A stretch of DNA of 64,000 nucleotides from Candidatus Staskawiczbacteria bacterium (GTDB lineage: Bacteria; Patescibacteriota; Minisyncoccia; Minisyncoccales; Staskawiczbacteraceae), in the NCBI GenBank assembly GCA_903928565.1, contig CAIYRH010000010.1:41614-105613 (forward strand), in the 5' to 3' direction. Both the position numbers and the translations under genes were made by a program. The notes beneath the pieces were generated by a model. That model ran no database searches and had not been told where the DNA came from. It saw nothing but the letters and a program-made list of their open reading frames with translations. How positions within the stretch are numbered: position 1 is the first letter of the stretch; every line of letters starts with the position of its first letter. Below, in pieces: positions 8,279-60,061 of this stretch.

Positions 8279-8640
8279 GTGTCTTAGCAAGATGAGTGAT
8301 TGCTCTAAACGCAAGTTTGGAGAGGAAAGTCCGAACACCAACGTCCCTCACGGGAGTTAAAATAATAGCGGCTAACGGCCGTCCGCAGTAATGCGCGAGG
8401 TGCGAACAGAAACGCCGAGCTCGAAAGAGTGAGGCGCCCGGTCGTATGACCGGGCGATTCCAATTGCAAGATTGGACTGAAACGGCTAAATCCTTATTGG
8501 GCGCAAGAACAAAGCAGAAAATTGGGTTAAATACATCTCGAGATTCTGTTAAAAGTAGTTCGCTTGATTCCGGCAGTAATGTCGTGAACAGACAGATAAT
8601 CACATAATACAAAATTCGGCTTATAGTCTTGCTAAGACAC
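8279..8640 (+). ncRNA. rnpB: RNase P RNA (bacterial type A-like)
   Basis: Universal P4 strands GAGGAAAGTCCGAAC and ACAAAATTCGGCTTATAG. The P1 helix is formed by 5' GTGTCTTAGCAAGA and 3' TCTTGCTAAGACAC. The block is G+C-rich in an AT-rich context, and the 127-aa minus-strand ORF over it is a shadow. Confidence 0.9.
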
Positions 8641-13686: not shown

Positions 13687-13715
13687 TTGACAAGAAATTA
13701 AAACAGACGTATAAT
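13687..13715 (+). promoter_or_regulatory. perfect-consensus sigma70 promoter facing G+C-rich island 1
   Basis: TTGACA (13687-13692), exactly 17 nt spacer, TATAAT (13710-13715). Confidence 0.8.
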
Positions 13716-13748
13716 TGACGCATATTTTAGTTACAGCACATTAACAAA

Positions 13749-13809
13749 GATAGATCATGGCTTAAAGGAAATTTGCCTAAAAGCGGTTTTTTTTGAGCCG
13801 TGATCTATC
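13749..13809 (+). promoter_or_regulatory. long leader hairpin between the promoter and the island-1 ORF
   Basis: 14-bp stem GATAGATCATGGCT / AGCCGTGATCTATC (one G-U pair) enclosing a 33-nt loop that contains a T8 run. Confidence 0.6.
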
Positions 13810-13870
13810 CTAAACCCAAATTGTTCGGATAGAAGTCTCGGTAATGGAAAAAGATCGAAGATAAAAAACC

Positions 13871-14326
13871 ATGAAGAAGGAAATTCCACCCTGGGTAGAC
13901 GAAGAAAAACACCTGACTCGGCCGTTGAGTAACGGCAAAAAACCCCCGGGGTCGAGGATCTACTGCGTTCGTTCCGGTAAGCCGCTGAAAGACGTGGCGC
14001 ATGGGTCCGATCGCTGTCACAAACGGTACGAGATCCACACCATTCTCAGGAACATCGATGAGTTCCGCGAAGGTGATGGAGTATATTCTGTGACGTTCAG
14101 CAGCCAACCCTCTCCGCCGACGGAGGAGGAACTGCGTCATCAACGCCGGCAGTCGCCGCTGTATAAGTGCATCGAAGGTAAGAAATGCAACGTCACCGTG
14201 ACGTCTAATGGCGTTTCTCTCTGGGGCGGGAAGCAACAGAAGGCCCGCCGGCGCCACGGTAGCAAGCGCTGCCGCAAAAACAGCGTTCGCGAACAAGTGT
14301 TCGCGCTCCAACCCCAACCCTGCTAA
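13871..14326 (+). CDS. hypothetical protein encoded in G+C-rich island 1
   Basis: 151-aa ORF. About two thirds of its codons end in G/C (counted by hand: 101 of 151), versus A/T-ending codons in neighbouring genes. No family recognised. It ends ...LQPQPC, inside the CCAACCCCAACCC motif. Confidence 0.5.
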   Translation: MKKEIPPWVDEEKHLTRPLSNGKKPPGSRIYCVRSGKPLKDVAHGSDRCHKRYEIHTILRNIDEFREGDGVYSVTFSSQPSPPTEEELRHQRRQSPLYKCIEGKKCNVTVTSNGVSLWGGKQQKARRRHGSKRCRKNSVREQVFALQPQPC

Positions 14327-14441
14327 CCCTCGCCCCCCAGCACCCACACCCCAGCAAAAAACTTTCCCCGAACAGCCACCCCCTATGGCGGGTATCACTA
14401 AGCAAGCGAAAGCGAGCAAACGTGGTACCCGTCCTATTTTT

Positions 14442-15848
14442 TTATACTTCAAAAGATTGCCCCATTGTTGGAATTTCAACAGGCAATAATGGATAAGATT
14501 TTTCCATTAATTCTTTAAAAACAGTAGCTTGAGGAAGCTCTGTGTGAACTAAAAATAATCTTTGTAAATTTTTAACATGCGCAATGTAAGAAGACAAATC
14601 GTTTTGGTCTGCGTGAGCTGAAAATTCGTGAAGAGTTTTTACTTGTGCCCTAATTTTATATTCTTTTCCATAAATTTTAACTGGACTAATTCCATCCTGA
14701 ATTTTTCTGCCCAAAGTGTCTTCCGCTTGATAACCTGTAATTAAAATTATATTTTGTGGGTTTTCTATATTGTTTTTTAAATGGTGTAAAACCCTGCCAC
14801 CTTCGCACATTCCCGAGGCGCAAATTATCATCATGGGGCCTGGTTTATTGTTTAAAGATTTTGACTCTTCAATTGTGCGCACGTAAGTTAAATTATTTAT
14901 TGAAAATGCCGATTGCCCGCGCGAGCCAAAATCCCTCTGAAAGTTTCCGTTAAAATCTTTTATATATTTTGGAAAAATTTCTGTAATGTTTTTTGCCAAC
15001 GGGCTGTCTATGTAAATTGGAATTGCAGGAATTAATTTTTGGTCTAAAAGTTTGTGTAAAATGTAAATAATGTCTTGTGTTCGGCCCAATGAAAAAGCGG
15101 GCACAATTATTTTACCTTTATTTTTTATTACAGTTGCAATTGCCCCTTTAAAACTTCCGGTGGCGTCGGTAATGGGGCTGTGGTTTTTGTCGCCATAGGT
15201 GCATTCTGTAATAAGCGTTTGCACATCTTCTTGAATGTATTCTGGACGGGGTAAAATAGGGGAATACTCTCTGCCTAAGTCGCCGGTGAAGGCAAGGGTT
15301 TTAACTGTCTCGCCCTCTTTTATTTCCAAGAAAATTATGGCCGAACCCAAAATATGGCCGGCATCGTAAAACTTAAACCGAATGTTTTCATTTAAAGCTG
15401 TCCATTGCCCAGTGTGCTTAAAATAATCTATTGTTTCAAAATGTTCAACAACTTTTAAAACGTCTTGCTCGGTGTAAATGGGAGAAATTTGGTCTGCGGG
15501 ATTTTCTGTGTGCTTGTTAAAATACAGGGCGTCTTGCTTTTGAATTTCGGCGGCATCTAGCATAATATATTTTGCAATTTCGGCGGTGGCTGGTGTGCAG
15601 TAAATTTTCCCCTCAAAGCCGTCTTTAACTAAAATAGGCAGAGTGCCACAGTGGTCTAGGTGAGCATGAGAAAGTATAACAGCATTAATTTCTTTTGGCT
15701 CAAAGGGTAGAGTGCGGTTTAGCCGGTTAGACTCGTCTCTTCTGCCTTGGTAAAACCCGCAATCTAAAAGCAAGTTGTAGCCGTTTGTTTGAATTAAGTG
15801 TTTTGAGCCGGTAACATTTTGGTCGGCTCCTAAAAAGTTTATTTTCAT
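14442..15848 (-). CDS. MBL-fold beta-CASP RNA-metabolising hydrolase (RNase J/CPSF-like)
   Basis: HAHLDHCG metallo-beta-lactamase motif and a beta-CASP layout (FSAHADQNDL near the C-terminus). 468 aa. Confidence 0.85.
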   Translation of the reverse strand: MKINFLGADQNVTGSKHLIQTNGYNLLLDCGFYQGRRDESNRLNRTLPFEPKEINAVILSHAHLDHCGTLPILVKDGFEGKIYCTPATAEIAKYIMLDAAEIQKQDALYFNKHTENPADQISPIYTEQDVLKVVEHFETIDYFKHTGQWTALNENIRFKFYDAGHILGSAIIFLEIKEGETVKTLAFTGDLGREYSPILPRPEYIQEDVQTLITECTYGDKNHSPITDATGSFKGAIATVIKNKGKIIVPAFSLGRTQDIIYILHKLLDQKLIPAIPIYIDSPLAKNITEIFPKYIKDFNGNFQRDFGSRGQSAFSINNLTYVRTIEESKSLNNKPGPMMIICASGMCEGGRVLHHLKNNIENPQNIILITGYQAEDTLGRKIQDGISPVKIYGKEYKIRAQVKTLHEFSAHADQNDLSSYIAHVKNLQRLFLVHTELPQATVFKELMEKSYPLLPVEIPTMGQSFEV

Positions 15849-15956: not shown

Positions 15957-16027
15957 TGGGCCGTGGAGGAGTAGTACCTCGGCAGTCTCATAAGCTGCAG
16001 GCCCCCGTGCAATTCGGGGCGGCCCAA
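15957..16027 (+). tRNA. tRNA-like gene, anticodon CAU, with non-canonical D and T loops
   Basis: A 71-nt cloverleaf can be drawn: acceptor TGGGCCG/CGGCCCA, D arm GAGG-AGTAGTA-CCTC, anticodon arm GCAGT-CTCATAA-GCTGC, T arm CCCCG-TGCAATT-CGGGG. It lacks the D-loop GG and the T-loop TTC. Confidence 0.45.
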
Positions 16028-16049
16028 CAAAATTAGATATTGAATTGAC

Positions 16050-16451: not shown

Positions 16452-16460
16452 CTTTTTTAA

Positions 16461-16488
16461 AGCCACCTTTCAATTGAGGTGGCTTTTG
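16461..16488 (+). terminator. terminator after the tRNA pair
   Basis: 8-bp stem AGCCACCT/AGGTGGCT followed by TTTTGG. Confidence 0.7.
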
Positions 16489-16526
16489 GTATATAATAAG
16501 TTTAATTAAATTTACATTATATAACT

Positions 16527-17432
16527 ATGCCAGTTAACGTGCCCGATAAATTACCAGCAATAGAAACTCTTAAAAAAGAGGATATTTTTGTCATGAAAAG
16601 GACAGACGCTCTTCATCAGGATATTCATCCGCAAAAGATAATTCTGTTAAATATAATGCCGACTAAAATAGCAACTGAAACACAAATTTTACGTTTATTG
16701 TCTAATTCTCCTTTGCAAATTGAATTATATCTTCTTCATCCTAAAAGTCACAAGCCAAAAAATACTTCTATAAAACACATGAAGATGTTTTATAAGACTT
16801 TTGACGAATTGAAAAAAAATAAATACGATGGTTTAATAATCACGGGAGCCCCAGTTGAAAGTATTCCTTTTGAAGAAGTTGATTATTGGGAAGAGTTAAA
16901 AGAAATTATGGATTGGAGTAAAAAAAATGTGACTTCCACTTTTTTTATTTGCTGGGCGGCTCAAGCTGGACTTTACCATTTTTACGGCATAGAAAAGCAT
17001 AAATTGCCAAAAAAAATGTTTGGCGTTTTTCCTCACAAAGTCCTTAATAAAAATGTACCATTGGTGAGAGGGTTTGACGACATTTTTTTTGCGCCACACT
17101 CACATTACACGGAAGTTAGAACAAAAGATATTAAAAAAATAAAAAAACTATCACTTATATCTGAATCTGACGAGGCTGGAGTTTATATTGTAGCCTCAAA
17201 AGATAAAAAGCAGATATTTGTGATGGGGCATTCGGAATATGACCCGCTGACTTTAAAAGAAGAATTAGACAGAGATTTAGAAAAAGGTTTGAATACAAGC
17301 GTGCCTAAAAATTATTTTGTGAAGGACAATCCAAAAAATAAACCTGTTGTAAATTGGAGAAGTCACTCAAGTTTATTGTTTATTAATTGGTTAAATTATT
17401 ATGTTTACCAAAAAAACGGGAACGATATTTAA
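16527..17432 (+). CDS. metA: homoserine O-acyltransferase MetA
   Basis: [15 protein letters not shown] start, [20 protein letters not shown] and [10 protein letters not shown] are typical of MetA (HTS/HTA). Confidence 0.9.
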
Positions 17433-17455
17433 TTAATTATTTATTTCAACTACTA

Positions 17456-17506
17456 GCCACCTTTCTTGTCCTGAGCATAGGCGAAGGATAATTAGGGTGG
17501 TTTTTT
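17456..17506 (+). terminator. metA terminator of the GCCACC...GGTGG type, carrying a 25-nt G+C-rich insert in its loop
   Basis: Outer stem CCACC(T)/(G)GGTGG followed by T6. Compared with the uninterrupted copy at 17788-17816, the loop contains an extra CTTGTCCTGAGCATAGGCGAAGGAT. Confidence 0.6.
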
Positions 17507-17547
17507 GGTTGTAAGGAAATGCCTGGCCTGCAGTCATATATGTATAG

Positions 17548-17614
17548 CCCTTAAATTACGAAATGATTTTGAGCCAATTAATTTAAATCAAAAATTTCAT
17601 TTCGTAATTTAGGG
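17548..17614. repeat. 18/19-bp inverted repeat with a 30-nt spacer
   Basis: The arms CCCTTAAATTACGAAATGA (17548-17566) and TCATTTCGTAATTTAGGG (17597-17614) are complementary except for one extra T. Confidence 0.8.
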
Positions 17615-17636
17615 ATAAAAATTAAAGAATAAATAT

Positions 17637-17780
17637 ATGTTTTTAGAAATTGGAATTGTTTTACTAATATTATGGATGCTGGGTTTTGCCTTTTATCCTC
17701 TTGGCGGGCTTATACATATTTTGCTAGTTGTGGCCCTTATTGCCATTGTTTGGCATTTTGTAACAGGAAAGCAGATATAG
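17637..17780 (+). CDS. lmo0937-family small membrane protein (47 aa)
   Basis: MFLEIGIVLLILWMLGFAFYPLGGLIHILLVVALIAIVWHFVTGKQI matches the lmo0937-type two-helix mini-protein pattern. It falls below the ORF-track length cutoff. Confidence 0.65.
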   Translation: MFLEIGIVLLILWMLGFAFYPLGGLIHILLVVALIAIVWHFVTGKQI

Positions 17781-17787
17781 TAACACC

Positions 17788-17816
17788 GGCCACCTTTTAA
17801 TTAGGGTGGCTTTTTG
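17788..17816 (+). terminator. terminator (GCCACC-loop-GGTGGC-T5)
   Basis: 6-bp stem GCCACC/GGTGGC, loop TTTTAATTAG, then TTTTT. Confidence 0.7.
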
Positions 17817-17853
17817 GTAAGGTAAGGTAAAGTAAATTAATTATTCAAATTTT

Positions 17854-18264
17854 ATGGATTATTTAAAACATAAAACTTCGCGATATTGGCTTCACATATT
17901 TTCAATGCCTTTTATTTGGTTGCCTTTGCCATTTCTAATGGCGTGCGACTTAGTTTGTGCATTTTATCAACTGATTTGCTTTCCTATTTATAGAATAAAA
18001 TGGGTAAAAAGATCGGAATATATTTTAATTTTTGACCGCAATAAATTGCCTTATTTAGACGGAATGCAAAAACTTGGTTGCATGTATTGCGGATATGCAA
18101 ACGGAATTTTGCGATATATGAAAGAAGTTGCTGGCAGAACTGAAAAATATTGGTGTGGAATTATGCACGAAGGTAAAACAGGGTTTAAAACTCAAGAAGA
18201 CCAAGTAAGCCAAAATTTTGCACACTTTGAAGATGAAAAAGATTTTAAAAATAAATACAAATAA
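17854..18264 (+). CDS. hypothetical membrane protein with a CxxC pair
   Basis: 136-aa ORF with an N-terminal hydrophobic hairpin and CMYCGYANG. No family recognised. Confidence 0.55.
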   Translation: MDYLKHKTSRYWLHIFSMPFIWLPLPFLMACDLVCAFYQLICFPIYRIKWVKRSEYILIFDRNKLPYLDGMQKLGCMYCGYANGILRYMKEVAGRTEKYWCGIMHEGKTGFKTQEDQVSQNFAHFEDEKDFKNKYK

Positions 18265-18267
18265 ATT

Positions 18268-18480
18268 ATGAAATTATGGAATTGGTTTCTATATATAACT
18301 AATAATGAAGAAACTTCCAGACACGAGCAACAATTTGACGTTGCATTCTTTATTATTAATTCAGTGGCGTTAGTTGTTGGCATTTATATGTTTATTGCAT
18401 ATAACGCGCCAGAGTGGATTCCGGTTTTGATTATTGAATATACCTGGGCGTTTGATAATCTTCGTAACAACAGGAATTGA
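18268..18480 (+). CDS. small membrane protein, paralog 1 (MKLWNW family)
   Basis: 70 aa. Very similar along its whole length to the ORF at 20389-20604. Confidence 0.65.
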   Translation: MKLWNWFLYITNNEETSRHEQQFDVAFFIINSVALVVGIYMFIAYNAPEWIPVLIIEYTWAFDNLRNNRN

Positions 18481-18499
18481 ACATGTTTAACGTGGTAAG

Positions 18500-18525
18500 A
18501 ACCATCTTGCTAAGGTGGTTTTTTA
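18500..18525 (+). terminator. terminator
   Basis: 8-bp stem ACCATCTT/AAGGTGGT (one G-U pair), 3-nt loop, T-run. Confidence 0.65.
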
Positions 18526-18579
18526 TTTAACGCAAATTTAATAACATAATATTAAAATGGAAACTAGAAATATGGGGTA

Positions 18580-18608
18580 TTGACGATTTAACATGGCGGG
18601 AGTATTAT
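18580..18608 (+). promoter_or_regulatory. sigma70-type promoter of the MATE gene
   Basis: TTGACG (18580-18585), 17 nt spacer, TATTAT (18603-18608). Confidence 0.65.
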
Positions 18609-18616
18609 TTAAATAG

Positions 18617-18631
18617 TAATGATTATCATTA
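18617..18631. promoter_or_regulatory. Fur-family-box-like 7-1-7 palindrome
   Basis: TAATGAT-T-ATCATTA is a perfect palindrome. The surrounding 19-mer matches GATAATGATAATCATTATC at 15 of 19 positions. It lies between the -10 element and the MATE start codon. Confidence 0.45.
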
Positions 18632-18644
18632 ACTTTGTATAAAT

Positions 18645-19985
18645 ATGGATTCTGGAAATTTAAAGTTAACTTCTGCCCCAATAAAAGAACTTATTCAAAC
18701 CATGGCGGTGCCCGCCATTATTGGTTTCTTTTTTAATACGCTATTTAATGTAGTTGATACAATTTATTCAGGGTTAATTTCAACACAGGCCATAGCAGCC
18801 CTGTCTTTGTCTTTTCCTATCTTTTTCATTTTAATTTCCATTGGCACGGGCTTGTCGACGGGAGCCACTGCAATAATTTCTAATCATTTAGGCAGAGAAG
18901 ACCACACAGAGGGCAAAATTTATGCTTTGCAAACCATATCATTTGGAATTTTAATTTCTATTCCGCTCACAATTATTGGTTTGGCAGTTTCGCCATATTT
19001 GTTTACGTTGCTGGGGGCAACTGGCGAATATTTGGCTTTATCTTTGGCATTTATGAATATGATTTTTTACGGAACCGTATTTTTTATTATGGTTTACGTT
19101 TTTAATGCCATATTAAACGCCATTGGCGACACTAAAACATTCAGAAATTTTTTAGTTTCTGGTTTGTTTGTTAATATTATCTTAGACCCCTTGTTTATGT
19201 TTGGTTGGCTAGGGTTGCCCAAAATGGGAGTTGCGGGAGTTGCTTTAGCAACCGTTCTGGTGCAGGCAGGAGGAACTGTTTATATGGGGTGGAAGGCGTC
19301 TAAGACATTTTTATTTGAACAGCCCACTTTTAAAAAATTGGTTCCACAGAAAGGGCCATTTTGGGGAATAATAAAACAAGGACTTCCTTCGGCGTTAAAC
19401 ACTGCCAGCGTTGGCGTTGGAATATTTGTAATAACTTATTTTATATCCATTTTTGGTAAAGAATCTGTTGCAGCTTATGGCATAGCAACTCGAGTTGAGC
19501 AGTTGTTTCTTTTGCCCTTGGTTGGGTTAAGTGTTGCCACCTTAACTTTGGTGGGACAGAACAACGGAGCAAGAAAGTTTGACAGGGTAAGAGAAACTCT
19601 CAAAATAACAACAAAGTATGGCGTATACCTCATGACATTTGGGGCTTTATGTATATTTTGCTTTTCGTCATATTTTATGAGAATTTTTACTGCCGATGCA
19701 AGCGTTATAAGCATTGGCTCGCATTACTTAAAATATGCCGCATTTTTAACGTGGGCTTATTTGTTTATATTTTTAAATATTTCAGCTTTACAGGGATTAA
19801 AAAAACCAATGTATGCTTTATATATTGGTTTAGCAAGACAAATAATTTTTCCGCTAGTTATGTTTGTATGGCTGTCTTCCTATTTTGGAATAGATGGAAT
19901 TTGGATTTCAGTTTTTTTTATAAATTGGACGGCTGCAATTATAACAGTATTTTATGTAAAAAAACAAATTGCCAAACTAACTTAA
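18645..19985 (+). CDS. MATE-family efflux transporter
   Basis: 446-aa, 12-TM-like protein with N-terminus PAIIGFFFNTLFNVVDTIYSG, typical of MATE/NorM. Confidence 0.88.
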   Translation: MDSGNLKLTSAPIKELIQTMAVPAIIGFFFNTLFNVVDTIYSGLISTQAIAALSLSFPIFFILISIGTGLSTGATAIISNHLGREDHTEGKIYALQTISFGILISIPLTIIGLAVSPYLFTLLGATGEYLALSLAFMNMIFYGTVFFIMVYVFNAILNAIGDTKTFRNFLVSGLFVNIILDPLFMFGWLGLPKMGVAGVALATVLVQAGGTVYMGWKASKTFLFEQPTFKKLVPQKGPFWGIIKQGLPSALNTASVGVGIFVITYFISIFGKESVAAYGIATRVEQLFLLPLVGLSVATLTLVGQNNGARKFDRVRETLKITTKYGVYLMTFGALCIFCFSSYFMRIFTADASVISIGSHYLKYAAFLTWAYLFIFLNISALQGLKKPMYALYIGLARQIIFPLVMFVWLSSYFGIDGIWISVFFINWTAAIITVFYVKKQIAKLT

Positions 19986-19989
19986 ACAC

Positions 19990-20307
19990 ATGATTAAAAA
20001 AAGTTTAGTTAAAAAATTTAAATATAATAATGGCAAATATGTAGGAAGCTCAGTAGACGCACTATATGGTAATGTTAAGGTTCAAATAATTATAAAGCAA
20101 GGGAAATTAAAAGAAATAGAAGTTATAGATTATCCCAAGGAAGATTTTTATTCTGAGGAAGTGAATGGCAGGGCACTTCCTGTCTTAAAAAAAGAAGCAA
20201 TATTAAAACAAACCAGCAATATTGATACGGTTTCAGGAGCTACAGAAACAAGTGAGGGTTTTATTAAGTCTTTAAAGTCTGCGCTTTTTAAGGCAAGCAA
20301 AATATAA
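19990..20307 (+). CDS. FMN-binding domain protein
   Basis: C-terminal IDTVSGATETSEGFIKSLKSAL (the flavinylation-type S/T-G-A-T motif). Paralogous to 35761-36225. Confidence 0.7.
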   Translation: MIKKSLVKKFKYNNGKYVGSSVDALYGNVKVQIIIKQGKLKEIEVIDYPKEDFYSEEVNGRALPVLKKEAILKQTSNIDTVSGATETSEGFIKSLKSALFKASKI

Positions 20308-20388
20308 TAAATGTCTATTTGTAATTTACCTTTTAATTAAGGTGTTTTTTTGGTAAAGTAAAATAATTATTAATTAAACTTAAAAATT

Positions 20389-20604
20389 ATGAAATTATGG
20401 AATTGGCTTATATACATAACTAATAATGAAGAAAATTCTAGGCATGAGCAACAATTTGATGTGGCGTTTTTTATTATTAACACGGTTGCGCTAGCTGTAG
20501 GTGTTTATATGTTTATTAAATATGGTGCGCCAGAATGGATTCCAGTGCTTATTATTGAATACACTTGGGCGCTTGATAATTTGCGTAATAATAGAAACTA
20601 TTAA
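20389..20604 (+). CDS. small membrane protein, paralog 2 (MKLWNW family)
   Basis: 71 aa, collinear with 18268-18480. The upstream terminator/spacer module is duplicated as well. Confidence 0.65.
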   Translation: MKLWNWLIYITNNEENSRHEQQFDVAFFIINTVALAVGVYMFIKYGAPEWIPVLIIEYTWALDNLRNNRNY

Positions 20605-20793
20605 AATAAAAAAACTGCCTATTAAAGCAGAAAGGGTGGGTGGTGGCTCAGTCACACATAGCAACTGAGCCACCCTGATTATCTTCGACCCGAGGGGGCC
20701 GAGATCGTGTGCTCCGAAGGCGGAGCAGATTTGGCCTTATGGCCGATTGTGGCGCTTCGCAAAGCGCGTATTCGGCCGGATTCGTTCTTGGCT

Positions 20794-20988
20794 CTACGCG
20801 TTGTCGAGGGGCGCCAAGCCGGCGTGAATGCCGTTCTTAGCAGCGTGGATGTTGATGCCGGCCATGCGGATGGTGGTCGTCGCGTTATTGATTGCGACGG
20901 GGGATTGGTTGGCGATTGCCAGTAGCTGTCGGCCTTCTTGACGTTGAGCATTGGCGATCACGACGTTGTTTTGGCATTTTCGGGCCAT
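20794..20988 (-). CDS. hypothetical 64-aa protein in G+C-rich island 2 (the start could instead be at 21075, giving 93 aa)
   Basis: MARKCQNNVVIANAQRQEGRQLLAIANQSPVAINNATTTIRMAGINIHAAKNGIHAGLAPLDNA. 46 of 64 codons end in G/C, with a strong C bias and an RNY-like pattern. The overlapping ORFs in other frames look like shadows. Confidence 0.5.
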   Translation of the reverse strand: MARKCQNNVVIANAQRQEGRQLLAIANQSPVAINNATTTIRMAGINIHAAKNGIHAGLAPLDNA

Positions 20989-20995
20989 AACGGTA

Positions 20996-21017
20996 TTGGG
21001 GTTGGGGTTGGGGTTGG
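20996..21017. repeat. (TTGGGG)3TTGG tandem repeat, which reads (CCCCAA)n on the coding minus strand
   Basis: Read directly: TTGGGGTTGGGGTTGGGGTTGG. It ends 8 nt upstream of the minus-strand ATG at 20988. Confidence 0.95.
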
Positions 21018-21152
21018 ATTGAATCCAGAATCTCCTTTTGGGAGAATTGCGGCCTACATCCGTAGCCACAACCATAAAGCTCCATTTAGAACCTTGTGGC
21101 TGTGGCTACAATAGAGATTGTTGTTAATGAACTATTGGAAAACATTATATTA

Positions 21153-21181
21153 AGTCTATAAAAAAGCAAATATTGTGTCAA
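21153..21181 (-). promoter_or_regulatory. candidate minus-strand promoter for the island-2 transcript
   Basis: On the minus strand: TTGACA (21181-21176), 17 nt spacer, TAGACT (21158-21153). Confidence 0.5.
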
Positions 21182-21221
21182 GGGGGTTGATGCATAAAAT
21201 ATTTTTTGGTAAAATAAAAAC

Positions 21222-21827
21222 ATGAAAAAAGAAATTTCAATAACATTAATTTTAATTATCGTGGTCTGCGTAATTATTAGCGGGTTTTATTTGATGAAAC
21301 CAAAACAAACGTCAACAACTAATTTAATTAATTCAACTATAAAAAATATGCAACACACAATAAAAATAAAAACAAGCATGGGTGACATAAGTTTTGTAAC
21401 TTATGATGGTGATGCTCCAAACACAGTTAAAAACTTTATAACATTGGCCGAGAAAGGGTTTTACGATGGTGTGATTTTTCACAGAGTAATTCCTGGCTTT
21501 ATGGTTCAAGGTGGCGATCCAACGGGAACCGGCACTGGTGGCCCTGGTTATAAATTTGCCGATGAATTAAACCCACAAACAGATTCTTACAAAGAAGGTT
21601 ACAAAAAAGGCGTGGTGGCTATGGCAAATGCTGGCCCAAACACCAATGGCAGCCAATTTTTTATAATGGTGGCCGATTACCCTTTGCCAAATAATTACAC
21701 AATTTTTGGAAAAGTTGTTTCGGGGCAAGATGTTGCCGATGCCATTTCTAATGTAAAAACTAACGCAAGCGATAAGCCCGTTACAGCTGTAACAATGGAA
21801 AAAGTTACAGTAGCCGAAAATAAATAA
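21222..21827 (+). CDS. membrane-anchored cyclophilin-type peptidyl-prolyl isomerase
   Basis: N-terminal TM segment, then FHRVIPGFMVQGGDPTGTGTGGPGY and GSQFFI cyclophilin motifs. Confidence 0.92.
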   Translation: MKKEISITLILIIVVCVIISGFYLMKPKQTSTTNLINSTIKNMQHTIKIKTSMGDISFVTYDGDAPNTVKNFITLAEKGFYDGVIFHRVIPGFMVQGGDPTGTGTGGPGYKFADELNPQTDSYKEGYKKGVVAMANAGPNTNGSQFFIMVADYPLPNNYTIFGKVVSGQDVADAISNVKTNASDKPVTAVTMEKVTVAENK

Positions 21828-44131: not shown

Positions 44132-44160
44132 TTGCAATTTTTTTCACTTTGATTTAATCT
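44132..44160 (+). promoter_or_regulatory. candidate promoter of the PurH-like cassette
   Basis: TTGCAA (44132-44137), 17 nt spacer, TAATCT (44155-44160). Confidence 0.5.
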
Positions 44161-44262
44161 AAAAATGATCAACGCGAGGCAGTTCTCGCGCTGACGCATC
44201 TTGATAATCAAGTTCTTTTTTACCAACCCCAACCAAACCAACCCCAATAGGAGGAACACGCC

Positions 44263-45966
44263 ATGAGTACCAACACAGCTACAAAACCCGAGAGGTTTTT
44301 CTTTTTTTCGTTGACCGACAAGGACGGTTCTATTGAATTTGCACGTCGTTTAGTGAATATTGGATGGCATGCATTGAGTGCCGGTGGAACTTGCAAAATG
44401 CTAGCGGAAGCTGGCATTCCCGTACAAGATCTTAAAGACATCGTGAAGGGCGGAGCCATTCTCGGGCACAAAGTTCTCACCTTGTCGCGGGAACTTGCCG
44501 CCAGCCTTCTGGCTGATACACTCGACCCCGAAGAATTGGCTGAATTAGTCAGCATGAATCTACCTTTCGTCGATTTCGTTTATTGCAATTTCTATGACCT
44601 CCAAAAGGCAATCAACGACGCTGCCACGCTCACGCGTGAAGAGGCGATTGCCTTAGTGATCAAGAAATTGGATATTGGTGGCCCGACTATGACGCGTGAG
44701 GCTGCCAAAGGGTTCCGGATTGTTGTTTGTCGCAAACAGGATATGGAGCTCGTGCTCTGTGAACTTGAAAAGACTGGCGACGTTTCAGTTGAAACCCGCC
44801 AAAAACTCCGCGCGCGTGCCGAGTACGAAGTTGCAACGTATGTTGCCAAGTCGGCAGTTTTTCACGGCGACGGACAATTCAATATCATTGCAGGCGAGCG
44901 CGTTTGCACATTCAAGGGCGAAAATGGTCCGCAAAGTCCCGCGGCGCTTTACAGCACTGGTAGCGAGGACCCGTTGGCCCTCGACAAGTTCGAGTTACTT
45001 GCCGGCGCAGATCCCAGCTATAATAATTGGTGCGACGTGACCAGATTGTTGGACACCATGACCCACATTGGTGCTGCATGGAAGTTGAATTTTGGGGAAG
45101 TCCCCACTATTGCCATTGGTGGTAAGCACGGCAACGCGTGCGGTGCGGCGGTAGGAACATTCGTTGCAATTGAAAATGTCGCTCAAAAAATGGTTCGTGG
45201 TGACACCCGTGCCATTTTTGGCGGGCTATGCATGATTAACAAGCCAGTGGACGAGTTTGTGGCGGTGGAAATGGCGAAAGCCATGCCGAGCAAAAAAGCC
45301 ATGTTTGACGGTGTAATTGCTCCGGAATTCGACGCTCGCGCTATTGAAGTGTTGTCGCGGTCCAAAGGCAAATGCCGGTTGATGAAAAATTCCGCATTGT
45401 TCGGATGCTCGGCTATTTTGGACACCGCACCGCGCTTTCGCTATGTGCGGGGCGGTTTCTTGGCCCAGCCCAATTACCGTTTTTTGCTGGATTTCAAAGA
45501 CCCCGATTTGAAGGTTTTCGGAGAACCTCTGGATTTGGAAACGAAAGAAGATTTGTTGCTGGCGTGGGCTATTGGTAGCACGTCTAACAGCAACACCATC
45601 ACTATTGTGAAAGATGGAATGCTCATTGGCAACGGCACAGGTCAGCAAGACCGAGTTGGTGCTGCCGAGCTTGCCATTAAGCGCGCAATTGATGCGGGCC
45701 ACGGCTCGTTTACATGGTGGGGTAAGTTGCTCCGCTTCTTGGGAGTTAACTATACTAAGAACGCACTTAAGGGGGCGGTCGCGTATAGTGATTCATTTTT
45801 CCCATTTGGTGATGGCCCCAAGATGCTACTCAAGGCTGGTGTTGAAACTATCCTTAGTACCAGTGGTAGCGTGAAGGACCAAGAGATTCAAGCCCTTTTC
45901 CTTAAGGCAGGCCGTAGGTTCGTACAGTTGCCCGATAGCAAGGCGCGTGGCTTCTACGGCCATTAA
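44263..45966 (+). CDS. divergent PurH-like protein (MGS-like domain + AICAR transformylase domain) in G+C-rich island 3
   Basis: Collinear with PurH: SLTDKDGSIEFARRL..LSAGGTCKML, LDIGGPTMTREAAKG, GENGPQSPAALY, PSYNNWCD, GKHGNACG, IFGG, GNGTGQQDRV, YSDSFFPFGDG, tail RGFYGH. The cyclohydrolase motifs KTLHP and NLYPF are replaced by LTLSR and NFYDL. AGGAGG lies 8 nt upstream of the ATG. Confidence 0.85.
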   Translation: MSTNTATKPERFFFFSLTDKDGSIEFARRLVNIGWHALSAGGTCKMLAEAGIPVQDLKDIVKGGAILGHKVLTLSRELAASLLADTLDPEELAELVSMNLPFVDFVYCNFYDLQKAINDAATLTREEAIALVIKKLDIGGPTMTREAAKGFRIVVCRKQDMELVLCELEKTGDVSVETRQKLRARAEYEVATYVAKSAVFHGDGQFNIIAGERVCTFKGENGPQSPAALYSTGSEDPLALDKFELLAGADPSYNNWCDVTRLLDTMTHIGAAWKLNFGEVPTIAIGGKHGNACGAAVGTFVAIENVAQKMVRGDTRAIFGGLCMINKPVDEFVAVEMAKAMPSKKAMFDGVIAPEFDARAIEVLSRSKGKCRLMKNSALFGCSAILDTAPRFRYVRGGFLAQPNYRFLLDFKDPDLKVFGEPLDLETKEDLLLAWAIGSTSNSNTITIVKDGMLIGNGTGQQDRVGAAELAIKRAIDAGHGSFTWWGKLLRFLGVNYTKNALKGAVAYSDSFFPFGDGPKMLLKAGVETILSTSGSVKDQEIQALFLKAGRRFVQLPDSKARGFYGH

Positions 45967-54243: not shown

Positions 54244-56196
54244 ATGTCAAAAATATTAGGAATTGATTTGGGGACAACTAACTCAGCTATGGCCATTGTG
54301 GAAGGTGGCGATGCTAAAATTATTGAAAATAAAGAAGGGGCACGAACAACGCCTTCTATTGTTGCAATATCAAAAAATGGTGAGCGAACAGTTGGAGTTT
54401 TGGCAAAAAGACAGGCCGTTACAAACCCGCAAAATACAATTTTTTCAGTTAAAAGGTTAATTGGAAGAAAATTTTCCGACCCAGAAGTGCAGAAAGATAA
54501 AAAAACTTTGCCTTACGAGATTAAAGAATCGGCTGACGGCGGAGTAGATGTTAAAATGGGTGACAAATGGCTTAATCCGGCAGAAATTTCGGCAATGATT
54601 TTGCAAAAATTAAAAGCCGACGCCGAAGCCAAACTTGGTGAAACAATTACCGACGCCATTATAACTTGCCCAGCATATTTTGATGATTCGCAAAGAAAGG
54701 CTACGAAAATTGCAGGAGAAATTGCCGGCTTTAATGTAAGAAGAGTTATAAACGAGCCAACTGCTGCTGCTTTGGCCTATGGATTAAACAAAAAGAAAGA
54801 CGAAAAAATTGTAGTTTACGACTTTGGTGGTGGAACTTTTGATGTTACTGCAATGGAAATTGTGGCTTCAGAGGGCGAAGATAAAGAGCAACAGGGTAGT
54901 ATTGAAGTTAAATCAACCGGTGGCGACACGCACTTGGGTGGCGACGACTTTGACCAAAAAATTATGCATTGGATTGTTGCCGAATTTAAAAAAGAAAGTG
55001 GAGTTGATCTTTCAAAAGATAATTTGGCTTTGCAACGCATTAAAGAAGCTGCCGAAAAAGCAAAAATTGAATTGTCTAGCAGTTTAGAAACTCAAATTAA
55101 TTTACCATTTATTACTTCGGATCAAAATGGCCCAAAACACTTAGACTTAAAATTAAAGCGCGCCGAATTTGAAAACATGGTGCAAGACGACATAGACAGG
55201 TCTATTAGTTTATTAAAGCAAACTCTAAAAGAATCGGGTTGGGATGTTAAAGATGTAAACGAAATTGTTTTGGTGGGTGGGCAAACAAGAATGCCAAAAA
55301 TTCAAGACGAAATTAGAAAACTTTTTGGCAAAGAACCAAACAAAGAAGTTAACCCCGACGAAGTTGTGGCAATTGGAGCCGCCACTCAAGGTGGAATTAT
55401 GGAAGGAACCGCCGGTAAAGATGTTTTGTTGTTAGATGTTACTCCATTATCTTTGGGAATTGAAACTTTTGGTGGAGTAGACACAATTTTAATTTCAAAA
55501 AATACAACTGTGCCAACTTCAAAAAACCAAACCTTCTCAACTGCCGCAGACAGCCAACCAAGTGTGGAAATTCACGTTTTGCAAGGTGAAAGGCCAATGG
55601 CAACCGACAACAAAACATTGGGCAGGTTTATGCTAGATGGCATTCCGCCCGCACCACGAGGCATTCCGCAAATTGAGGTTTCTTTTGACATTGATGCTAA
55701 TGGAATTTTGAATGTTTCGGCAAAAGACAAGGCAACAGGCAAATCGCAGTCAATTAAAATTGAAGGTTCTTCGGGAATTTCAAAAGATGAAGTTGAAAGA
55801 ATGAAAAAAGATGCCGAAATGCACGCCACCGACGACAAAAAGAAACAAGAAGCCATTGAGGCAAAAAATACTGCCGATGCCTTGGTGTACACTTGCGAAA
55901 AAACACTTAAAGATTCTGCCGACAAAATAAAGCCAGAAGACAAAAAAGAAGTGGAAGACAAGATTGGTGCCTTGAAAGAAGCACAAAAAGGTGATAATAT
56001 AGAAGAAATTCAAGCAAAGACTAAAGATTTATCGGAAAGCATGCAACGCGTTGGGGGAGAGTTATACAAGCAAGAACAGGCTCAAACGAACCCAGACGAA
56101 AAAGATATTCCACCCGCCTCCGGCGAAGGCTCTGGCGAGGCAAAGAAAGATGACGAACCAAAAGCCGAAGAAGGAAAGTTTACTGAAGAAAAATAG
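54244..56196 (+). CDS. dnaK: chaperone DnaK (Hsp70)
   Basis: [27 protein letters not shown] and a C-terminal Glu/Lys-rich lid. Confidence 0.97.
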
Positions 56197-56233
56197 TTTG
56201 TAGTGAGTAGTTTGTAGACTTTTAAAAGTATTT

Positions 56234-56261
56234 CTACCAACTACCAACTACCAACTACCAA
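56234..56261 (+). repeat. (CTACCAA)x4 heptamer tandem repeat
   Basis: Read directly. Four perfect units end 7 nt before the dnaJ ATG. Confidence 0.95.
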
Positions 56262-56267
56262 CTGACG

Positions 56268-57724: not shown

Positions 57725-60061
57725 ATGAAAACAATAAATAAATTAATTGTTGGATGCATATTCTTAACGGTCGGAATTGTTACATTGTACGGAAACGCTG
57801 CAATTGTTTTCGCGTGTAACGGAAGTAATCATTCTTATTTGGGATGTAGCGGAGGATCGGTATATTGGTTCGATTCCTGCGATTTCAAAACAGATCTTTA
57901 CCAGCAATGTGCCGCCGACCAAATTTGTCAGTCTGCACACTGCATAACGGTAAATATTGACTGTTATACTAACGCAGATTGCGGAACCAGCGGTTTCGTA
58001 GGAAGCCCATTCTGCCAAGGAAACTCGGTTTACAAGAATTACAAAACATTTACTTGTAACCATCCTGGTACGTTAGATAGCATTTGTACTGACGCCACAA
58101 CAGCTCAGCTTCAAAATACTTGTTCTGGCAGTCAAACATGTTCTAATGGTAGCTGTAACACAATAGTATGTAGTAACGACTCTCAATGCGGAACAGACGG
58201 TTTCGTAGGAAGCCCATTCTGCCAAGGAAACTCGGTTTACAAAAACTACAAAACATATACTTGTAACAACCCAGGAACATCTTCCAGCTCTTGTACAAAT
58301 TCAACTGCAGCTCAATTGCAAAATACTTGTACTGGAAATCAAACCTGTAGCAATGGAAGTTGTTCAGCCGTGGTTTGTAGCACAAACTCAGATTGCGGAA
58401 CTAGCGGATTTACAGGAAGCCCATTCTGCCAAAATAATGCAGTTTACAAAAACTACAAAACATATACTTGTAACAACCCTGGAACATCTTCCAGCACTTG
58501 TACCAACTCTACAGAGGCTCAATTGCAAAATACCTGCTCAGGTAGCCAAACTTGTAGCAACGGAAGCTGTAATTCAATTGCATGTAGCTCAAATAGTGAT
58601 TGCGGAACCAATTCTTTAACGGGCAATCCTTTTTGCCAAGGTGGAAACGTTTATCAAAATTTCAAAACCTACACCTGTAACAATCCAGGAACATCTTCCA
58701 GCACTTGTTCAAACTCAACTGCAGCTCAGTTGCAAAATACTTGTGCATCGGGACAGACTTGTAGCAACGGAAGCTGTAATACAGTAGTTTGTAGTGCAAA
58801 CAGTGACTGCGGAACAAATGGAAGCACTGGTGGTTTATTCTGCCAAGGAAACAGTGTATATCAAAATTTTATAACTTATACTTGTCACAATCCCGGTACT
58901 TCAACCAGCACCTGTTCTAATTCAACAGCAGCCCAATTGCAAACAACCTGTACTGGAAATCAAACATGTAGCAACGGAAGTTGTAGCGCAATTGCTTGTA
59001 GTTCCAATTCTCAATGTGGAACAAACGGAAGCACGGGCGGCCTATTTTGCCAAGGAAATAATGTTTATCAAAACTTTATAACTTACACCTGTAACAATCC
59101 AGGAACATCTTCCAGCTCTTGTACAAATTCAACTTCGGCTCAATTGCAAAATACTTGTACTGGAAATCAAACCTGTAGCAACGGAAGTTGTTCAAATTCA
59201 TGTACTGCAAATTATCAGCAAAGATGCGTTGGAACAAGCATGTATTGGTTTGATTCATGCGGTTCGCAAGGTAGCTATGTAGGAACTTGTGGAAATAACT
59301 GCACACAAAATTATCAGCAAAGATGCGTTGGAACAAGCATGTATTGGTTTGACTCTTGCGGTTCGCAAGGCAGTTATGTAGGAACTTGTGGGAATAACAA
59401 TAACAACACCACGCTAACTGTTACAAAAATGGTTAGAGACCTTACAACAAATACAACTTTTGCAAATTCAACATATGCCAATCCTTCAGATATGTTGATG
59501 TTCATGATTACTGTGCAAGCCAATGGAAATCAAGATGCTCAAAACATTTCTTTAAGAGACACACTTCCAGCAAACCTTATTTACAACAATCAATTAGTTG
59601 TAGCAAGGTCAAATAACAACAATTACAACAATTACTCGGGTGACATAATGTCTGGTTTGAATTTAAATACAATTTCAGCCGGTCAAACAGTTACCATAAC
59701 ATACCAAACACAAGTAGCCGGCGCAACAGCCTTTGTATTTGGAACAACAACTTTAAGTAACCTTGTAAATGTTACCAGTTCAAACACTGGCTATGTTCCA
59801 ACTGCCTCAGCTTCTGTAATTGTTACAAGAGCGGGCGTGTTAGGAGCTTCAACAGTTTCAACCGGTATAACCGATAATTTCTGGATGGATTCGTTTATTT
59901 TGCCTTTATTGTTAACATTAATGGGCATTTGGATGTGGAAGTCTGGAGTATTCTTTGGAATTGAAAAATGGTTTGATAACAAAAAGAAAATTAGAAGGGG
60001 ACACCAAGCAGAAAAAGAATTCTTGCATAGAATTGCCAATATCCAGAAATCTGGAAAATAA
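57725..60061 (+). CDS. large Cys-rich repeat surface protein with a C-terminal TM anchor
   Basis: Signal/TM N-terminus, six 68-69-aa Cys-rich repeats, two 33-aa repeats, a DUF11-like beta region (TVTKMVRDL...), a TM helix and a basic tail. Confidence 0.85.
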   Translation: MKTINKLIVGCIFLTVGIVTLYGNAAIVFACNGSNHSYLGCSGGSVYWFDSCDFKTDLYQQCAADQICQSAHCITVNIDCYTNADCGTSGFVGSPFCQGNSVYKNYKTFTCNHPGTLDSICTDATTAQLQNTCSGSQTCSNGSCNTIVCSNDSQCGTDGFVGSPFCQGNSVYKNYKTYTCNNPGTSSSSCTNSTAAQLQNTCTGNQTCSNGSCSAVVCSTNSDCGTSGFTGSPFCQNNAVYKNYKTYTCNNPGTSSSTCTNSTEAQLQNTCSGSQTCSNGSCNSIACSSNSDCGTNSLTGNPFCQGGNVYQNFKTYTCNNPGTSSSTCSNSTAAQLQNTCASGQTCSNGSCNTVVCSANSDCGTNGSTGGLFCQGNSVYQNFITYTCHNPGTSTSTCSNSTAAQLQTTCTGNQTCSNGSCSAIACSSNSQCGTNGSTGGLFCQGNNVYQNFITYTCNNPGTSSSSCTNSTSAQLQNTCTGNQTCSNGSCSNSCTANYQQRCVGTSMYWFDSCGSQGSYVGTCGNNCTQNYQQRCVGTSMYWFDSCGSQGSYVGTCGNNNNNTTLTVTKMVRDLTTNTTFANSTYANPSDMLMFMITVQANGNQDAQNISLRDTLPANLIYNNQLVVARSNNNNYNNYSGDIMSGLNLNTISAGQTVTITYQTQVAGATAFVFGTTTLSNLVNVTSSNTGYVPTASASVIVTRAGVLGASTVSTGITDNFWMDSFILPLLLTLMGIWMWKSGVFFGIEKWFDNKKKIRRGHQAEKEFLHRIANIQKSGK
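57962..59200 (+). repeat. six tandem repeats of about 207 bp inside the surface-protein gene
   Basis: Unit: CSxNSxCGTxGxxGxxFCQGNxVYxNxxTYTCNNPGTSSSxCxNSTAAQLQNTCxGxQTCSNGSC. Confidence 0.9.
59201..59398 (+). repeat. two tandem 99-bp repeats
   Basis: CT(A/Q)NYQQRCVGTSMYWFDSCGSQGSYVGTCGNN occurs twice, nearly identical at the DNA level. Confidence 0.9.

Follow-up and report, generated by a model that had tools for sequence, protein, structure and literature searches.

We analyzed a 64,000-nucleotide stretch of DNA from a Candidatus Staskawiczbacteria bacterium (contig CAIYRH010000010.1, positions 41,614 to 105,613 of the forward strand; hereafter the window, in whose positions all coordinates are given unless another locus is named). 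This A+T-rich Patescibacteria sequence (window G+C about 0.30-0.40) has a G+C-rich stretch of ~570 bp, here called island 2, that separates the gene of a peptidyl-prolyl isomerase (PPIase, 21222-21827) from the second of two small membrane genes of the MKLWNW type (20389-20604). Our analysis shows this stretch to be genuine and, on the strand opposite to the surrounding genes, to form a transcription unit complete in itself. In minus-strand order, the unit consists of a promoter, a leader of ~37 nt, a long hairpin, a short hairpin, the repeat (CCCCAA)3, the AUG at 20988 with its open reading frame (ORF), a hairpin array and a terminator. With about as much confidence as doubt, we take it to be a monocistronic small-protein gene that diverges from the PPIase gene.

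The G+C content is 0.53-0.60 at 20600-20999 (200-nt windows) versus about 0.24-0.35 in the flanks, and the relatives of the PPIase place the window among the Patescibacteria/Paceibacteria, nearest to Staskawiczbacteria-like genomes. An initial annotation, made from the letters of the sequence, had proposed a separate unit on the minus strand that has a promoter, a terminator and structured untranslated regions (UTRs). Promoter and terminator scans and RNA folds bear this out, and the features that it had listed were all found at their positions, barring two small corrections (the length of the terminator tail and the number of pairs in one hairpin).

Results

Promoter, terminator and structure of the minus-strand unit

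The scan placed the sigma-70-type promoter TTGACA-17-TAGACT exactly where it had first been seen, at 21181-21153 on the minus strand (10/12 matches), with TATAAT additionally present at 21149-21144 (minus). It also found an intrinsic terminator, CUGC-UUUAAUA-GGCAG then U7, at 20630-20608 (minus), which was the sole terminator-like site in 20300-21400; the initial annotation had given this short stem a T8 tail, which is T7. The promoter and the terminator of the unit were seen on the minus strand only. Judged by its sequence, the stretch thus has the sigma-70 promoter and the intrinsic terminator on the same strand that define an independent transcription unit, from which RNA would be transcribed.

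Structure in the predicted RNA was limited to the UTRs, with fold z values, against shuffled controls, of -4.95 for the 5'UTR, -6.43 for the 3'UTR and -0.93 (no excess structure) for the ORF. The 3'UTR forms a hairpin array (20793-20631, minus), and no shuffle folds as well; its members are GCGCUU/AAGCGC, GGCC/GGCC, GCUCCG/CGGAGC, a 10-pair stem and a stem at 20642-20674 that has 14 pairs counting wobble. The hairpins first described in this region (GCGCTT/AAGCGC, GCTCCG/CGGAGC and the stem at 20642-20674) are all present in the minimum-free-energy fold. The search of Rfam that the initial annotation had proposed disclosed no known RNA family: the island had no Rfam 15 match at the gathering threshold, and relaxing the limit to an E of 10 brought up four chance-level matches only (12-15 bits). 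ARAGORN found nothing in 20600-21200; the four tRNAs that it called lie in other parts of the window. The initial annotation had advised a search of the rest of the genome for more copies of the bracketing hairpins; within the window none was found, and only a C4A2-type 10-mer recurs.

Conservation of the 5' module

A related Paceibacteria genome from the same study (L099; shared genes 75-80% identical in DNA, PPIase 86% identical) carries, upstream of its PPIase gene and in the same divergent orientation, the TTGACA -35 element, a 26-nt block over the -10 region, a 23-nt block and the long hairpin. The -35 element and the 26-nt block TTTTTTATAGACTTAATATAATGTTT (21165-21140) are identical in the two loci, and so is the 23-nt block AUAGUUCAUUAACAACAAUCUCU (21135-21113, 100%), which lies in the single-stranded A/U-rich 5' leader (21111-21146, minus; mean unpaired probability 0.70). 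The call of the minus strand is reinforced by the promoter, leader and hairpin kept in L099.

The long 5' hairpin (21110-21061, minus) has 14 + 8 pairs and a 4-nt loop (dG -33.1 kcal/mol, z -8.6); the initial annotation had recognized its presence and had put its length at 13 bp, which proved to be 14 + 8 (22) pairs. Its dG on the minus versus the plus strand is -33.1 versus -23.3 kcal/mol in the window and -32.4 versus -29.5 kcal/mol in L099. Between the two loci, 10 stem positions differ, all by transitions, and these amount to three compensatory double changes and four one-sided pair-keeping (wobble) changes with 0/20 shared pairs broken, an outcome without broken pairs that was reached in 1.8% of simulations with 10 random transitions (P=0.018). 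Covariation in homologs, to which the initial annotation had pointed as a mark of function, is therefore seen as compensatory changes in the long hairpin, and with two sequences compared it lends modest support to a conserved RNA structure there. The short hairpin UCUCC-CAAAA-GGAGA (21045-21031, minus), which appears in both the minimum-free-energy and the centroid folds, is not conserved in L099.

Similarity to L099 stops exactly at the 3' base of the long hairpin, and the body past it has neither DNA nor protein similarity to L099. No U-run follows the hairpin in either genome, though the genome has U-tailed terminators; therefore, the long hairpin is not a terminator and the RNA is predicted to read on. 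A covariance model of the 5' module was run on 28 sources, made up of the window and 27 other loci, and matched the window and L099 only. Matches in IMG/VR to patterns of the hairpin arms and of the leader were rejected as chance, being without the hairpin or its context. A 9-mer, CATTAACAA, common to the promoter/hairpin regions of island 2 and of another G+C-rich cassette of the window (island 1, described below), has 5 copies versus 2 expected in the window, which is not significant.

Conservation that is limited to the promoter, leader and hairpin and ends at the hairpin base would also suit a non-coding regulatory RNA, in which the conserved 5' domain (a ~37-nt seed and the 22-pair hairpin) is the functional part, the body is fast-evolving or arbitrary and prolongs the RNA to the next terminator, and the ORF is fortuitous. 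The 23-nt single-stranded block, 100% conserved, is seed-like, and the 3' part of the RNA is densely structured. Such an RNA belongs to no Rfam family, even at E up to 10 in the island, and L099 is likewise without a match; no trans target complementary to the conserved leader was found within the 64-kb window; and a short small RNA (sRNA) would need processing, the hairpin being without a U-tail in both genomes. This alternative is weighed further below, together with the evidence for translation.

Assembly integrity

The base composition jumps sharply at both edges of the island, as it would if G+C-rich reads of another organism had been joined to an A+T-rich contig. The initial annotation had named the surroundings of 20640 and 21110 as the junctions to be checked, and we compared them with independent ENA metagenome contigs, which come from several samples and two assemblers and are 100% identical to the window. 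The left junction is crossed by L003 (20242-20806) and by L093/L094 (20375/20382-20955), and the right junction by L001/L002 (21033 onward); both are thus confirmed. Therefore, and with the right-hand part of the island (promoter and hairpin) syntenic in L099, we consider an assembly chimera or contaminant extremely improbable. The 3' array is also 100% identical on L003, L093 and L094.

A point that would fit a chimera is that 77 nt at 20956-21032, which hold the AUG, the C4A2 tract and the short hairpin, are crossed by no independent contig. In at least three samples, the independent contigs stop at 20806 or 20955 or begin at 21033, whereas island 1, no less rich in G+C, is spanned by contigs of the same study. 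The gap at 20956-21032 could have arisen because sequencing drops out at the G4T2 run or because the number of repeats varies. All independent contigs are identical over the island, so that they provide no substitution pattern between strains.

The 64-codon ORF and its leader

The ORF (20988-20794, minus; MARKCQNN...APLDNA, with the stop TAG at 20796-20794) is contained in a listed 93-aa ORF and encodes a probable orphan small protein, which is basic, rich in Ala and Asn and without a hydrophobic segment. Its G+C by codon position is 0.58/0.43/0.72 (permutation p=0.003), where the value at third positions (GC3 0.72) agrees with the bias to C-ending codons reported before (46/64 ending in G/C); the 3'UTR has no codon periodicity. 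When the whole RNA was folded with a partition function, the AUG at 20988 had an accessibility of 0.73, the highest of 8 AUGs (others 0.12-0.58). The ORF thus combines 3-nt periodicity with an accessible start, as expected of a coding sequence on intrinsic grounds, although its periodicity also fits an antisense frame.

Directly before this AUG stands an unpaired C/A-rich leader, CCAA(CCCCAA)3 then UACCGUU (21019-20989, minus; mean unpaired probability 0.76), whose exact repeat (CCCCAA)3 was found at 21013-20996 as first annotated. It had been called telomere-like, which is a coincidence: there are three copies, internal and with unique sequence on both sides, which is no telomeric array, and the tract is one of a set of C/A-repeat leaders before start codons (PurH, DnaJ and the PurH of another locus, L090). 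CCAACCCCAA has 7 occurrences at 4 loci in the window versus 0.25 expected, and besides island 2 it is found directly before the AGGAGG-ATG of a PurH-like gene (44221-44263, with the C/A repeat at 44221-44247) and at the 3' end of the island 1 ORF. A different C/A repeat, (CAACTAC)4 at 56234-56262, adjoins the ATG of a DnaJ-like gene. PurH is a genuine gene of the lineage, about 60% identical in Staskawiczbacteria, and its ortholog in L090 (900-1003) is arranged alike, with hairpin, (CCAA)n, GGAG and ATG in that order, in a different sequence. Only 4/58 long ORFs of the window have a Shine-Dalgarno-like motif, and previous work demonstrated experimentally that C/A-type (ACA) motifs upstream of starts are translation enhancers in enterobacteria (PMC3879156). 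Because of these sibling leaders, the rarity of Shine-Dalgarno motifs and the enterobacterial ACA enhancers, the simplest reading of the C4A2 tract is that of an unstructured C/A-rich translation leader.

Two of the sibling leaders have foldings of their own. The start of the PurH-like gene (44140-44263, plus) comprises a small hairpin, CCAACCCCAA twice, AGGAGG and ATG, and its fold pairs UUCUUUUUU with AGGAGGAAC, which turns the C/A repeat into a 28-nt loop; the stem that closes this loop would sequester the Shine-Dalgarno sequence. The PurH leader could be a conserved regulatory one. In the dnaK-dnaJ spacer (56195-56267, plus), (CAACTAC)4 pairs with GTAGTTTGTAG-type repeats just upstream, and the long hairpin so formed (z -3.9) is a candidate for an RNA thermometer or for a site of processing.

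Searches for relatives of the peptide

The statement of the initial annotation that the peptide matches no family was borne out in all family, cluster and metagenome searches: no relative of the 64-aa ORF was found in about 15 billion proteins. Family searches and a plasmid tblastn, which used the 64-, 93-, 72- and 90-aa ORFs, returned nothing for any of the four in Pfam, PHROGs, NCBIfam, PADLOC, PDB and the plasmids. When 1.84 billion representatives were searched exhaustively with phmmer, the peptide had two matches, with E of 5e-6 and 3e-5, both to repetitive Ig/cadherin-like adhesins. We rejected them because each E-value sums 5-8 copies of one 27-bit match that is at chance level per unit; moreover, the Pfam models Big_9 and Cadherin do not match the peptide. 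DNA searches against phages and plasmids gave only a chance A+T-rich match of 42 nt.

A comparison of the 64-aa ORF with a 52-aa ORF of L099 did not reveal significant homology overall (p 0.2-0.35); the N-terminus M(A)RK(C/Y)Q..(V/L)IA that they share reaches p=0.037 post hoc and is a hint only. Hence neither homologs or purifying selection nor a known family identifies the ORF as protein-coding in these collections, and the ORFs of L099 are unrelated to it. AlphaFold, run without an alignment, gave two amphipathic helices at low confidence (single-sequence pLDDT, predicted local distance difference test, 59.5).

Weighing translation against a non-coding RNA

Several of these results count against a small-protein gene. 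An ATG-initiated ORF of at least 64 aa occurs in 29% of shuffles of the region, so that its length is unremarkable for T-poor sequence, and its GC3 of 0.72 is far from the ~0.30 of the host. The same periodicity fits a codon-aligned antisense ORF of 72 aa, which is the sole prediction of a gene caller, made only on short contigs that cut the minus-strand ORF. The ORF is not conserved in L099 though the 5' module is, the reverse of the usual pattern of an mRNA. To these are added the low-confidence AlphaFold model and the searches for the peptide, which gave no credible relative in the exhaustive phmmer, none in a word-indexed search of 5.8 billion protein clusters, none by back-translated patterns in the JGI metagenomes and IMG/VR, and no match in Pfam, PHROGs, NCBIfam, PADLOC, PDB or plasmids.

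The conservation of the UTR and not of the ORF favours the regulatory RNA, and so do the lack of a homolog of the ORF and an ORF length that is common in shuffles. On the other side, the codon periodicity is confined to the ORF, the best-exposed AUG stands directly behind the type of leader that real genes have, and L099 too has an A/C-rich stretch before an ATG. We consider a regulatory RNA unlikely, although it remains the strongest competitor of the small-protein gene, and the initial caveat of a partly or wholly non-coding function still stands. Because of the codon periodicity, the most accessible AUG and the C/A-repeat leaders before PurH and DnaJ, we favour translation, and the 64-codon ORF is probably translated.

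The variable segment upstream of the PPIase gene

The DNA of the window aligned with L099 in four stretches, namely from RNase J to tRNA-Met, from tRNA-Met to tRNA-Asp, from the hairpin to the PPIase gene and from EamA to RibF. Window positions 16453-21057 (4.6 kb) have no counterpart in L099, which has 395 bp there instead (L099 2441-2835). The left edge of this segment is the 3' end of tRNA-Asp and its right edge is the base of the conserved hairpin; its genes are a MetA-like gene, a 136-aa gene, the two MKLWNW genes, a MATE transporter, an FMN-binding protein gene and the body of island 2, and neither an integrase nor another mobile-element gene was seen in it. Since 16453-21057 is unaligned in L099, the G+C-rich body is, by this alignment, the right-hand end of a variable segment. 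The word cassette, which the initial annotation had used, therefore does not hold in the evolutionary sense: promoter, leader and hairpin go with the PPIase flank and are conserved, and the G+C-rich body is the end of the 4.6-kb segment that L099 lacks.

In L099, the conserved promoter reads for ~370 nt to a bidirectional terminator, and this stretch has an A/C-rich run ahead of the ATG of the 52-aa ORF. A 59-aa ORF of L099 (2589-2768, plus) begins like a signal peptide, has a promoter of its own and is host-like in its G+C by codon position (0.55/0.50/0.35); it is antisense to the RNA expected from the conserved promoter, and on its strand the conserved hairpin lies 75 nt downstream. Two further related loci carry unrelated ORFs of higher G+C directly upstream of the PPIase gene, each with its own TTGACA promoter and terminator: a 152-aa ORF in L004 (3373-3831) and a 537-aa ORF in L005 (2084-3697). 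In addition, L004 has a riboflavin-kinase-like gene (L004 2901-3246) that is broken up into two ORFs, which overlap. The position upstream of the PPIase gene suggests, on these loci, a hot spot of gene turnover.

Such a position raises the question of whether the body is captured foreign DNA that itself has no function: a fragment of some G+C-rich donor, perhaps what is left of a gene on one strand or the other, that would be transcribed only by way of the conserved promoter. It lies at the edge of the variable segment next to tRNA-Asp, where L099 has its 395 bp; its composition is far from that of the host; other unrelated genes of higher G+C precede the PPIase gene in L004 and L005; and the periodicity equally fits a plus-strand, GNN-rich frame. 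Yet no donor was found in phages, plasmids, JGI metagenomes or protein collections, the sequence is 100% identical across samples, and a C/A leader, an accessible AUG, a structure-free ORF, five stable hairpins and a terminator, all in order on one strand, would be unexpected of a random fragment. We regard a captured fragment without function as improbable.

Other features of the window

The promoter of island 1 (13688-14440, plus), the second G+C-rich cassette, is a perfect TTGACA-17-TATAAT. The cassette further has a 5' hairpin of ~29 pairs (13749-13810; region z -5.3) and an orphan 151-aa ORF (13871-14326) that is a singleton protein cluster present on 7 contigs, and it ends in a C-rich tail containing CCAACCCCAACCC and a terminator. 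A back-translated scan of the JGI metagenomes found no relatives of the island 1 ORF.

The two MKLWNW paralogs (18263-18476 and 20384-20597) are 82% identical in DNA, and the same terminator-plus-promoter stretch stands ahead of the 136-aa gene (17792) and of the second MKLWNW copy (20328). A TTTTTGGTAAAaTAAAA-type promoter is repeated ahead of several genes (17811, 20346, 21202). The -10 hexamer of the PPIase gene (TAAAAT with an upstream TG; 21187-21224, plus) ends 6 nt ahead of the ATG, and the PPIase mRNA is therefore probably leaderless.

Elsewhere, one large gene contains in-frame tandem repeats (57977-59380, plus), 6 x 207 nt with Cys-rich motifs and then 2 x 99 nt. A bacterial class A RNase P RNA lies at 8284-8639 (plus; 118 bits in Rfam), and a tRNA-Met at 15957-16028 (plus) was called by ARAGORN and not by Rfam at the gathering threshold.

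Discussion

We propose that a promoter common to the lineage would start an RNA of ~530 nt, whose first ~85 nt, the single-stranded leader and the 22-pair hairpin, may act as a 5' stability or processing module. This module could protect the RNA from 5'-end-dependent decay by an RNase J-type enzyme, for which the window has a gene (14442-15848), or it could offer a site for RNase III; a function of the hairpin in the unit is in either case our inference. The unpaired C/A tract would then recruit ribosomes to the AUG at 20988 without a Shine-Dalgarno sequence, and the product would be a basic orphan protein of 64 residues, to which we assign no role. The hairpin array and the terminator would close the unit, and they may also shield the 3' end and insulate it from the convergent MKLWNW gene.

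We regard the locus as a curiosity of modest weight that adds no new kind of system; it overturns nothing, and the protein may prove unimportant. Small orphan genes and UTR elements of bacteria of the candidate phyla radiation (CPR) are almost unstudied, however, since the organisms are uncultured. Three items can be tested: a covariation-supported 5' hairpin module that is absent from Rfam, C/A-repeat leaders that in a Shine-Dalgarno-poor lineage may show how ribosomes choose starts, and a hairpin base at which conserved DNA gives way abruptly to exchanged DNA.

As to known systems, two can be set aside. The peptide is without a hydrophobic segment and the scan found no antisense promoter inside the unit, which does not agree with a type I toxin-antitoxin pair. 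The hexamer of the C4A2 tract is identical to that of the C4A2/G4T2 telomeres of the ciliate Tetrahymena, but the window has three copies, internal and in a predicted leader, and the sibling leaders use CCAA and CAACTAC, so that the resemblance is coincidental.

A comparison with integrons is closer in layout. Like an integron platform, the locus has a conserved outward promoter and a hairpin exactly at the boundary of non-homologous cargo; unlike it, the locus has a single cargo, no integrase among the neighbouring ORFs and hairpin arms without the RYYYAAC/GTTRRRY cores of attC sites, and two genomes were compared. We mention as a speculation of low probability that promoter, leader and hairpin form a fixed expression platform that captures foreign cargo at the edge of the tRNA-Asp-linked segment, integron-like without an integrase, with the hairpin as the recombination boundary, or else that the 5' domain is an undescribed regulatory RNA of CPR bacteria.

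Stem-loops near the 5' end are known to stabilize mRNAs, as in the 5'UTR of E. coli ompA and in the aprE and ermC leaders of Bacillus subtilis, which block the entry of RNase J/RNase Y. The hairpin of the window resembles these in being very stable, near the 5' end of a predicted monocistronic mRNA and accompanied by an RNase J-type gene in the window, and it appears to be conserved via compensatory changes; it differs in lying ~37 nt from the predicted 5' end and in its 22 pairs, which are long enough for RNase III.

With the ACA enhancers of enterobacteria (the GcvB targets dppA, oppA and yifK; PMC3879156), whose activity tolerates variable spacing, the C/A tract shares a G-poor, unstructured sequence directly upstream of the start that recurs at several genes. 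In contrast to them, the tract of the window repeats one hexamer perfectly and is followed by no Shine-Dalgarno sequence, in a mostly Shine-Dalgarno-poor host, and no GU-rich partner sRNA was found here; its role as an enhancer is putative, resting on position, unpaired state and recurrence.

Finally, the unit is like the orphan small proteins of CPR bacteria in having a short ORF without a homolog, its own promoter and terminator and a small A+T-rich genome around it, and unlike them in a GC3 of 0.72, opposite to host usage, and in that the conserved part is the 5'UTR and not the protein. The unit is therefore made of known kinds of element, namely an orphan small gene, a 5' stem-loop and a C/A-rich leader, in a form that is absent from the databases searched.

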